From sequence record LR597642: 40,019 nt of DNA; one strand, given 5' to 3'. The stretch comes from Escherichia phage Evi. Position 1 is the first letter of the stretch. The number at the start of each line of letters is the position of its first letter. The position numbers are program-made. Positions 24,001-27,000 of this stretch are shown in pieces.

Positions 24001-27000
24001 CAAACGAATACCGCTAGCATACTCAGGCCAAATAAGCTCCCAATCATGGGGTCGTAGCTCCGCCCTACTTACTTGGCCTTCCGTCGCAGATTCGATCATA
24101 AGGGCGCGGGTTGGAGATATAGCTGCTCGTCCGGACGCCATTTGCGATAAGTAAGATGGCGATACACCAAGTCTGGCCGCGAATTTCTTAGCATCACCAA
24201 CCCTCAATGATTTAATAAACTCTTTTAATGTCATACCTTCCTCGGTTTAGTGTTTTCTTGCGAGTTTAGTGTTTAATAAACCATTAAGTCAAGTATTTGC
24301 TTGTTTAGTGATTACTAAAGATAATTACCACATGCAGAAAAAAGAAATTCGCCGTTTACGTCTCAAGGAGTGGTTTAAAGATAAAACTCTGCCACCCAAA
24401 GAGAAGAGCTACCTATCTCAACTAATGAGTGGGAGGGCCTCGTTTGGAGAAAAGGCTGCCAGAAGAATAGAGCAAACATACGGGATGCCGGAAGGGTATC
24501 TGGATGCGGAATACGCAGAACAACCGGAGATTTCTCCACCACATGCAGGGTTAACGTCTAATCAACTGGAATTATTGCAGATTTTTTCAGCCTTCCCTGA
24601 GGATGAGCAACGCCAGATAATCAGCGAGTTAAAGCAGAAAAAAGAATCAATGGAAGATCTCATAGCGAGATGGATTGCGGCGCAAAAATGCCGCCGCGCC
24701 TAAGTTATAAAACCGGAGGAAACATGAATAGAGCCCTTTCACCAATGGTTTCTGAATTTGAAACCATTGAACAAGAAAACAGTTACAACGAATGGCTGCG
24801 TGCGAAAGTAGCAACGAGCCTTGCAGATCCGCGCCCAGCAATTCCCCATGACGAAGTTGAGCGCAGAATGGCAGAACGCTTTGCTAGAATGCGCAAGGAA
24901 CGGAGCAAGCAGTAAAATGTTACCCGTGTTATGGCTTGAAAGCGCAGATACCGACCTAGATGATATAACCAGTTATATTGCTCGTTTCGACATAGATGCG
25001 GCTGAACGCTTATGGCAGCGATTAAGGGGTTGTGTGCTGCCGTTATCCGAACATCCGTATTTATACCCACCAAGCGACAGAGTACCTGGCTTGCGTGAGA
25101 TTGTGGCCCACCCTAACTATATAATTCTATACCGCGTAACAACATCAAGCGTTGAAGTAGTAAACGTGATCCACGCAAGACGCCAGTTTCCCTAACTTTA
25201 ACTACCAATAGAAACATAACAACCGCAACGACTTTACCAAAAGCGTTGTGTTTGTTACGCCCCACGGTTTAGTTTTTGCTTGACTTAAGTTTAATGTTTA
25301 TTAAACTAAAAATACCAACCCACCCCGCCCCACAGAACGCAGGGCAATACTTCGAGTTACCCGGCAGTGGTCAGGGGTTAAGTAGCCAGCCCGAGGCGTA
25401 AGAACATGACGGCAGGGTTCAACTTTAATAACTATGCAGCAGGTTTTTGTTCCGCTACCCCGGCGTGAAGGGGAAACAGAGGGTTTCTCAGTGGGCGAAG
25501 TCAAACATCAGAATGGAAGGCATCCCGGGATCGGCAAAGAAGCGGCAATGGCGCTTTATATTGACATCAGCGCCATTGCCGGACAGGTAAGAGTTATCAG
25601 AGCGGTAACTAAGCGGTATGCGCCTTTACTTCAGAAAGTCTCTGGTGAGTGCACCGAAGATATTGTCAACGATTTCGTCATCGAACTGCGAGGACTCATC
25701 TTCAGTTACAAGGTGACCACAATTTTTGCAGATGGCTCCCGCGAAACTATCAGAGCCCTGCGGCTTAAAGGATGTGTCAAAGACTTCGCCACCACATTCT
25801 GGGCAAGAAAACTTGATTGTATTCATAACCAATTTCCTCTCGAGTAACAGACCCCTCAGAGGATACCACCTCGCCTGACGTGGTTAAAAGCAGGCAACGC
25901 TAACCACAAGGAGCCGACATGCAGAAACGAGAACCCGTCATCATCGCGCCAGACTATACCGATGATGAACTTTATGAGTGGATGCGCCAGAAAATTAATG
26001 CAGCGCAGGATCTGAAATGGGCCAATGAAGCCAGGGCTAAGCAGGCTGAAAATCTGTCCGCTCTGGAGCAGGATATCACCAATCTGGAAAAAGCAGCGGC
26101 ATTAAGCATTGCCAGAATGATTACATACCCACGTTAATAGCTAACCAACGAGGCTAATAATGGAATTTAAAGATTTACCAAAAGAAATCCAGACAATTGC
26201 TGCAACGACTCTCGGTGATAGTCTGGTGAAAATTGACCCGGCATACACCAAAAAAGAAACCATCGATAATATGGTTCGTAATGTGCGCAATGCTTTTTCT
26301 GGGCTATATGGTTCTGATAATCAAAAGCAGGAAAGCGATGTTAATAAACGGGTAATTTCTGTTTGCGTGAATGGCCATGTTCTTTCATCAATCAAAACAG
26401 AAACGGCGACAGTCTTCGATTGCCTTTGCATTGTACAGAGCCTTGTTGATGCTCTGTTTCGTTCAGTGAATTTAGAAAATGATGCAAATCTGCGAGGGCG
26501 CACAATAGCACATCCATATGCACATACTTTAGGCTCTGTGGATATCAAAGATCCCACAAATCTTTAATGAAATAGTTAACGCGAATTGTACTTGCTCTTT
26601 CAGTTGCTTTCAGAATACGCGTTGAAACTGCTGGCGGTAATTTGGTATTCCATTTATTAAAATCATGCCCGGAAAAGTACTCTTCGAAAATACTTTTAAC
26701 TGCAGACTCGCCTATTGAAATGCTGCTTACCATGCGATTTTGATAAAGGCATTTAGCAATAAGAGTTGATTTTAACATTCACCCTCCTGAGGGTTGGTAA
26801 TTAAGGAGTTCTCCACGGGTGAAGTGGAGTGCGTGCGCCGGACACGGGTGAACATCCGGCACTGACAGTTTACTGAAAGGATATTTCTCTGAAAAGTCAG
26901 AGCATAACGCGAAAGCGCACGGCGAGGTTGCTGGTTCATAGATAGCCTGTCGTTAAATTTTCGTCGACCGTGCGCTTCCGGTTGTGGCACTCCGCGAAAT

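Follow-up and report, generated by a model that had tools for sequence, protein, structure and literature searches.

In a 40,019-nucleotide stretch of DNA from Escherichia phage Evi (sequence record LR597642; the whole stretch is called the window below), two small open reading frames (ORFs) follow the gene of the lysogenic repressor. Together with this gene they are best explained, with a probability of about 0.93, as paaR2-paaA2-parE2, a three-component type II toxin-antitoxin (TA) operon that is embedded in a lambdoid immunity region of the CP-933P/Sp12 type and would act there as an addiction cassette. The system is already characterised and common, and the observation made in the first-pass annotation, which had described a TA pair behind the repressor, is correct but ordinary. 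The locus is also named RAE2, and its home is the cryptic prophage CP-933P/Sp12 of E. coli O157:H7 (PMC8630535). Published sources on it comprise Jurenas 2021 in mBio (PMC8630535), Hallez 2010, in the part that is relayed by PMC8630535, and Acta Cryst D 2023.

Gene identity, gene order, expression signals and operators of the Evi copy were read directly from the DNA. The 63-aa and 92-aa ORFs had been placed at 24724–25195, and these coordinates are exact, extending from the start of the first ORF to the stop of the second. The 20-bp gap with a ribosome-binding site that had been described ahead of them is likewise present (24704–24723) and contains a GGAGG. For the antitoxin, the profile search to which its family assignment had been left returned PaaA2, with PF21217 as the sole Pfam match (1e-19, 70.6 bits, cut-off 27) and the NCBIfam model NF050103 at 5e-24. 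The protein is identical at 62 of 63 residues (98.4%) to the PaaA2 of PDB 3ZBE, 5CW7 and 5CZE, with R54 replacing K, and no DNA-binding domain of the ribbon-helix-helix (RHH) or helix-turn-helix (HTH) type was matched in it by Pfam. The toxin matches Pfam ParE_toxin (PF05016) at 1.9e-16, with 60.9 bits where 23 would suffice as the cut-off, and all 92 residues are identical to the crystallised E. coli O157 ParE2 (PDB 5CW7 chain B). Given these Pfam scores and the identity to solved structures, both small ORFs are genuine genes that did not arise by chance. Regulator, antitoxin and toxin follow one another on one strand with tight spacing, as is characteristic of PaaR-PaaA-ParE operons, and the single nucleotide between the paaA2 stop and the parE2 start suggests translational coupling.

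The toxin had initially been assigned to the RelE/ParE family. The ParE part of this assignment holds, but the RelE part does not, as the RelE_StbE model, whose cut-off is 27.9 bits, reached only 21.4. An mRNA interferase pair of the RelE type, which would inhibit translation, is therefore very improbable, even though the RelE_StbE match itself (TIGR02385, 2.7e-4) and the designation of the antitoxin model NF050103 as "RelB family" by NCBI point in that direction. The toxin is identical to a crystallised ParE2 that is reported to induce SOS when overexpressed and to co-localise with the nucleoid. Membership in the RelE/RelB mRNA interferases was rejected on the sub-threshold TIGR02385 score. 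Membership in the canonical ParD-ParE systems was also rejected, as neither a ParD nor an RHH match was found and the antitoxin is the 63-aa PaaA2.

The upstream gene encodes the repressor PaaR2, which matches O157 PaaR2 at 121 of 123 residues (98.4%); the two differences, G66E and G67I, fall at residues 66–67 in the linker. In the PDB comparison, residues 1–65 were identical to the "Phage repressor protein CI" fragments of 7NKV and 8C3K. Since the protein as a whole is so close to O157 PaaR2, we read these fragments as the N-terminal domain of PaaR2. The C-terminal residues 71–119 resemble the C-terminus of DicA (NF007257, 1e-6, below the cut-off). PaaR2 has been described as a CI analogue whose gene is leaderless like lambda cI, as determined by 5' RACE (the rapid amplification of 5' cDNA ends), with the N-terminus MQKKE confirmed by protein sequencing, and as unresponsive to mitomycin C (PMC8630535). 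Because PaaR2 lacks a cleavage domain, the window was scanned for LexA boxes that could mark an SOS-controlled antirepressor; the pattern CTGT-N8-ACAG had a single match (9451–9466), no more than chance would give and located within the portal gene.

The surrounding DNA has the layout of a lambdoid immunity region, with the repressor gene and a cro-like gene diverging from a region of several operators and the accessory pair between the repressor and OL/PL (Table 1). In the alignment with the O157:H7 chromosome the regulatory DNA is kept: the 97-bp OR differs by 1 nt, YdaS differs from O157 YdaS by one amino acid, and ydaT, a homologue of the CP-933P gene, differs at 67 of 426 nucleotides (~16%). 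Moreover, the segment 24332–25430, from RAE2 to PL, matches a prophage of E. coli EC12 with 100% identity. Within OR, 18-bp palindromes occupy 24264–24281 and 24303–24320, and the exact motif GTTTAGTRW, of the repeat families D1/D2, occurs three times in the 40-kb window, all within OR. GTTTAGT-type operator repeats as a class are confined to 24245–24320 and 25267–25306, and OL shares D1, D2, I1 and I7 with OR. The first-pass annotation had also pointed to an operator-like early-left promoter region beyond the toxin; this is borne out by the sigma-70-like promoter TTGACT-16-TAAACT at 25280–25307 (+), which carries hexamers identical to those of PR and is flanked by OR-type repeats. The PRM was read by eye and lies below the thresholds of the promoter scan. 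Its -10 element ends 6 nt before the paaR2 ATG, and a transcript would begin at the A of this ATG and would be leaderless.

Table 1. Features of the paaR2-paaA2-parE2 immunity region and the adjoining replication gene in the window.
Feature	Position	Strand	Details
Replication initiator	22368..23444	-	
ydaT, CII analogue, 141 aa	23510..23935	-	Pfam YdaT_toxin PF06254 at 6e-10
YdaT operator OM, TTGATTTTCATGAATCAA (TTGATT-N6-AATCAA)	23925..23942	.	ydaS/ydaT junction; only match in the window, 0 mismatches
ydaS, Cro analogue, 100 aa	23932..24234	-	Pfam YdaS_toxin PF15943 at 3.9e-12; HTH_3 at 1.4e-6
OR region, 97 bp, PaaR2/YdaS operators	24235..24331	.	GTTTAGT-type repeats at 24245, 24264, 24303
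PR, drives ydaS-ydaT	24263..24292	-	-35 TTGACT, 18-nt spacer, -10 TAAACT; consensus scan
PRM (predicted)	24297..24325	+	-35 TTGCTT 24297-24302, 17-nt spacer, -10 GATAAT 24320-24325; sequence reading
paaR2, CI-analogue repressor, 123 aa	24332..24703	+	ATG 24332; stop TAA 24701-24703; no S24 peptidase domain
Shine-Dalgarno GGAGG of paaA2	24715..24719	+	within the 20-bp gap; direct sequence reading
paaA2 antitoxin, 63 aa	24724..24915	+	ATG 24724; stop 24913-24915
parE2 toxin, 92 aa	24917..25195	+	ATG 1 nt past the paaA2 stop; stop 25193-25195
Hairpin 3' of parE2	25217..25257	+	fold of 25190-25275: -18 kcal/mol, z = -2.5
OL operators + PL	25267..25307	+	-35 TTGACT 25280-25285, -10 TAAACT 25302-25307, 16-nt spacer; palindrome 25289-25306; scan

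These signals correspond to elements that have been mapped in CP-933P. There, the intergenic region is likewise 97 bp long, PR and PRM were located by 5' RACE, and the activity and transcription start site of PR were demonstrated (PMC8630535). The footprints of PaaR2 and YdaS overlap on the operators, with the half-site GTTTAGTAA, and PL933P, which lies beyond RAE2, has the hexamers of PR, three operators and about 100-fold repression by PaaR2 or YdaS (PMC8630535). The Cro-like role of YdaS is taken from PMC8630535, and the CII-like role of YdaT from PMC8630535 and PMC9986795. YdaT activates a PRE-like promoter (PMC8630535), and the motif and position of OM were defined by footprinting (PMC9986795). 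The switch as a whole was found to be bistable, and the evidence on CP-933P spans 5' RACE, electrophoretic mobility shift assays, footprints, promoter fusions, bistability and mini-F stabilisation (PMC8630535). The scan called no intrinsic terminator between parE2 and PL in the Evi copy; the hairpin found there is non-canonical and has no U-tract. This hairpin could represent the 3'-end, or a stabiliser, of the PRM operon transcript.

Comparison with CP-933P/Sp12 RAE2 (PDB 3ZBE, 5CW7, 5CZE, 5CZF, 7NKV, 8C3K) revealed the same gene order, the same protein lengths (123/63/92 aa), the same 20-bp and 1-nt spacers, and the same 97-bp OR, PR, PRM, PL, operators, OM and flanking ydaS/ydaT. ParE2 is 100% identical and PaaA2 and PaaR2 are each 98.4% identical, and the differences amount to three conservative or linker substitutions and the nucleotide divergence of ydaT. 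The elements themselves differ in that CP-933P is a defective integrated prophage, whereas the 40,019 bp of Evi form a complete genome that closes into a circle and keeps the gene order of a phage. A paralogous three-component system, paaR1-paaA1-parE1, is carried by the lambdoid prophage CP-933M of the same O157:H7 strain (PMC8630535). The ParD-ParE systems (RK2, Caulobacter ParDE1 3KXE, Vibrio ParDE2) share the PF05016 toxin family, with 3KXE matched at 3.6e-5, as well as an antitoxin gene in first position, tight coupling and post-segregational killing. In contrast to these, PaaA2 has no RHH domain and no autoregulation, and a separate repressor takes over regulation.

The module is widespread in E. 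coli. Among 5426 complete genomes, the TA pair was detected in 633, of which 594 reached at least 95% identity, and paaR2 in 593, all at 95% identity or above, so that about 11% of the genomes contain the module. The hosts of the pair include O157:H7, O26, O111, ST131 and ATCC 25922. That the two counts nearly coincide suggests linkage of repressor and pair in almost all cases, and the 39 genomes with 80–95% identity to the TA query may include paaR1-paaA1-parE1. An exact 40-mer across the paaA2/parE2 junction was present in 47 IMG/VR contigs, 46 of which encode PaaR2; the same kind of scan over species-representative genomes gave 0 matches. Against 50,697 phage records, megablast of the immunity region found no match, tblastn with ParE2 found only ~33% matches from Vibrio, and the best tblastn match of PaaR2 was 44.6%, in a Klebsiella phage; none of these phages therefore offered a comparator.

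Outside E. coli, a protein-based scan of species-representative genomes identified relatives with 47–74% ParE2 identity in Alpha-, Beta- and Gammaproteobacteria. These data bear on the possibility that the pair is a purely selfish cassette, namely a mobile bicistronic paaA-parE that landed behind the repressor, benefits neither phage nor host and was kept only since its loss is lethal. In 76 of the 80 loci with such relatives a PaaA homologue lies directly upstream, and in none of the 80 was a homologue of PaaR2, YdaS or YdaT located within 3 kb. No conserved third gene was found upstream of paaA-parE in these loci, where the upstream ORFs appear heterogeneous or spurious, although non-homologous regulators would escape this comparison. 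This distribution fits the published idea that a bicistronic paaA-parE cassette may have been captured by a lambdoid immunity region, with the same proviso that regulators without homology would be missed, and insertion into the immunity region is also proposed by the authors of PMC8630535. On the other hand, the tight, near-universal linkage to paaR2 in E. coli and the lost autoregulation suggest integration into the phage switch and not a recent passenger. We regard the purely selfish cassette as a tentative second reading; it is in any case compatible with the best explanation, addiction being the mechanism in both. Such bare PaaA-ParE two-gene cassettes (loci L051–L130) are widespread, in Acetobacteraceae, Acidithiobacillus, the Pseudomonas syringae group, Bartonella, Comamonadaceae and others, and no regulator recognisable as PaaR-type was seen near them.

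The proposed working of the three-component operon as an addiction cassette draws its operon structure, leaderless translation, repression, bistability, Clp-dependent post-segregational killing and structures from the literature on the same proteins, and we infer from the near-identity of the sequences that the Evi copy would behave like that of CP-933P. In a lysogen, PaaR2 bound to OR and OL would repress PR and PL and sustain a weak PRM. The PRM transcript, leaderless for paaR2, would run on through paaA2, with its own Shine-Dalgarno sequence, and parE2. PaaA2, small and largely disordered, would wrap around ParE2 and neutralise it in a large hetero-oligomer. Transcription would be controlled by the phage switch (PaaR2, YdaS, YdaT) in place of antitoxin autoregulation. 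PaaA2 would be degraded by ClpXP/ClpAP and ParE2 would be stable; because of this difference, loss or replacement of the operon would free ParE2, leading to nucleoid association, SOS induction and cell death. The pair would thus put a cost on losing the immunity region or having it replaced by recombination.

Several of these steps have published counterparts. According to the summary of Hallez 2010 in PMC8630535, paaR2, paaA2 and parE2 form one operon, ClpAP and ClpXP degrade PaaA2, which lacks a DNA-binding domain, and overexpressed ParE2 induces SOS and co-localises with the nucleoid. For the identical ParE2 and the near-identical PaaA2, the literature also documents that the toxin is toxic and that its cognate antitoxin neutralises it (PMC8630535, citing Hallez 2010). 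Co-transcription with the lysogenic repressor, as had been suggested at first, agrees with the single operon expressed from PRM in the near-identical CP-933P locus (PMC8630535). The idea of prophage stabilisation gains support from plasmid stabilisation by post-segregational killing with Clp-dependent antitoxin decay (Hallez 2010, as cited in PMC8630535), and the RAE2 locus stabilises an unstable mini-F as well as ccdAB does (PMC8630535).

Other points weigh against addiction by the Evi copy. The functional experiments concern CP-933P and not Evi, and the Evi proteins carry the substitutions K54R in PaaA2 and G66E and G67I in PaaR2, the effect of which is probably neutral. Addiction was demonstrated on plasmids and not on retention of a prophage or an immunity region (PMC8630535). 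In CP-933P, no SOS response, the proxy for ParE2 activity, was observed in either transcriptional state (PMC8630535), which makes any natural trigger and any biological benefit putative. In addition, ParE2 is reported neither to bind GyrA59 nor to inhibit gyrase (review PMC10886550), which also sets it apart from ParD-ParE. Addiction would nevertheless be the naturally selected function in our reading, a view held also by the authors of PMC8630535.

The position of the pair raises a further possibility, which had been named alongside prophage stabilisation in the first-pass annotation. The pair occupies the interval from the repressor gene to PL/OL, which in lambda is the site of rexAB, and this matches the published, near-identical CP-933P locus. 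As in lambda cI-rexA-rexB, a leaderless repressor gene is expressed from PRM and two lysogen-expressed accessory genes separate the repressor gene from PL/OL; repressor octamerisation and an OL-OR logic have been proposed as further likenesses (PMC8630535). The differences are that PaaR2 has no S24 autocleavage domain and that the accessory genes are unrelated in sequence, RexAB being an abortive-infection system and the present pair a type II TA system. Searches of Pfam, NCBIfam and PADLOC returned no RexA/RexB homology and no defence-model match.

Rex-like abortive infection or superinfection exclusion would require that an invader halts host transcription or triggers proteolysis, that PaaA2 decays, and that ParE2 brings about cell death while the invader's cycle is still incomplete. 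We consider this unlikely. It is favoured by the sharing of both position and transcription unit with rexAB and by the combination of a labile antitoxin with a stable toxin. The latter is the architecture of several anti-phage TA systems. The pair is also transcribed in both switch states (PMC8630535), but ParE2 activation was undetectable under the conditions tried there. PaaR2, PaaA2 and ParE2 match no PADLOC defence model, and no report of anti-phage activity of PaaA2-ParE2 was found in the searchable literature. This lack of support from PADLOC, literature and activation data is absence of evidence and not a negative test. For a live phage, a somewhat wider role, in which the pair could also act in the lysogen as a Rex-like module of abortive infection or exclusion, or guard the immunity region against heteroimmune recombinants, appears similarly doubtful next to addiction by the paaR2-paaA2-parE2 operon.

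The genomic setting of the operon was examined across the window. The alignment with phage mEp460_ev081 is unbroken across the window ends, continuing from 37832–40017 to 1–785 (junction 40019|1), and the integrase side directly adjoins the tail-fibre side, the arrangement of a phage genome. For these reasons the 40,019 bases are considered a circularly closed lambdoid genome in phage (attP) gene order. It encodes the structural and packaging proteins small and large terminase, portal, protease, major capsid, major tail, tape measure and J, together with endolysin, Rz, Q, RusA, a replication initiator, a RecE-like exonuclease and an integrase. The synteny around the switch is O-like replication gene, ydaT, ydaS, OR, paaR2, paaA2, parE2, PL, ydfC, DicF, kil and exonuclease. 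The only mildly new aspect is that what appears to be an intact, excised or circular phage genome, and not a defective prophage, bears the RAE2 immunity region.

Several other features were noted in the window. Downstream of PL, an ECs_2282-family zinc-ribbon ORF (25626–25832, -) and ydfC (25919–26137) precede the DicF antisense small RNA (27113–27164, +; RF00039, 76.4 bits) and an ORF for a Kil-like FtsZ inhibitor (27332–27565, +). With DicF and the Kil-like ORF in this position, the early-left operon would contain several inhibitors of host cell division. A second TA module, of the type I hok/sok kind, was located in the nin-like region (19758–20082, -), where Rfam sok (RF01794) matches at 19908–20082 with 113.5 bits and the Hok-like peptide MKQQKAMLIALIVICLTVIVTALVTRKDLCEVRIRTGQTEVAVFTAYEPEE lies within the ORF 19758–19970 (-). 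Just downstream of the replication gene, in the minus-strand direction, ORFs at 20613–21056 (+), 21077–21862 (-) and 21881–22327 (-) encode a GNAT acetyltransferase, a 261-aa HTH_3 regulator with a weak cupin match and a Ren-like (DUF977) exclusion protein; these are possible further morons or exclusion functions.

Three transfer RNA (tRNA) genes with the anticodons tct (Arg), ttt (Lys; a weak Rfam match, 37 bits) and cat (Met/Ile2-type) are situated directly downstream of Q (17056–17877), followed by a match to the small RNA STnc100 (119.9 bits). The coordinates of this tRNA/STnc100 region are 16589–16830 (-) and 15625–15811 (-), and the tRNA arrangement resembles the cluster of Stx-type lambdoid phages. 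A 203-aa protein encoded at 32279–32890 (+), in the interval from the integrase/attP side to the tail-fibre genes, contains three 47-aa proline-rich EspF repeats (PF04806, 4.8e-78) and looks like a type III secretion effector of the TccP/EspFU type. If it is TccP/EspFU-like, Evi would count as a converting phage that carries an effector and belongs to an attaching-effacing lineage of E. coli.

The discovery value of the locus is small, given that the locus, its regulation, its structures and addiction are already published and that it is present in about one-ninth of complete E. coli genomes. Its occurrence in an apparently complete phage would make the natural release of ParE2, the ParE2 target, defence of lysogens against other phages and protection of the immunity region from recombination addressable in a functional rather than a cryptic element. 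A Rex-like or anti-replacement role, if true, would be directly testable with a plaque-forming phage.

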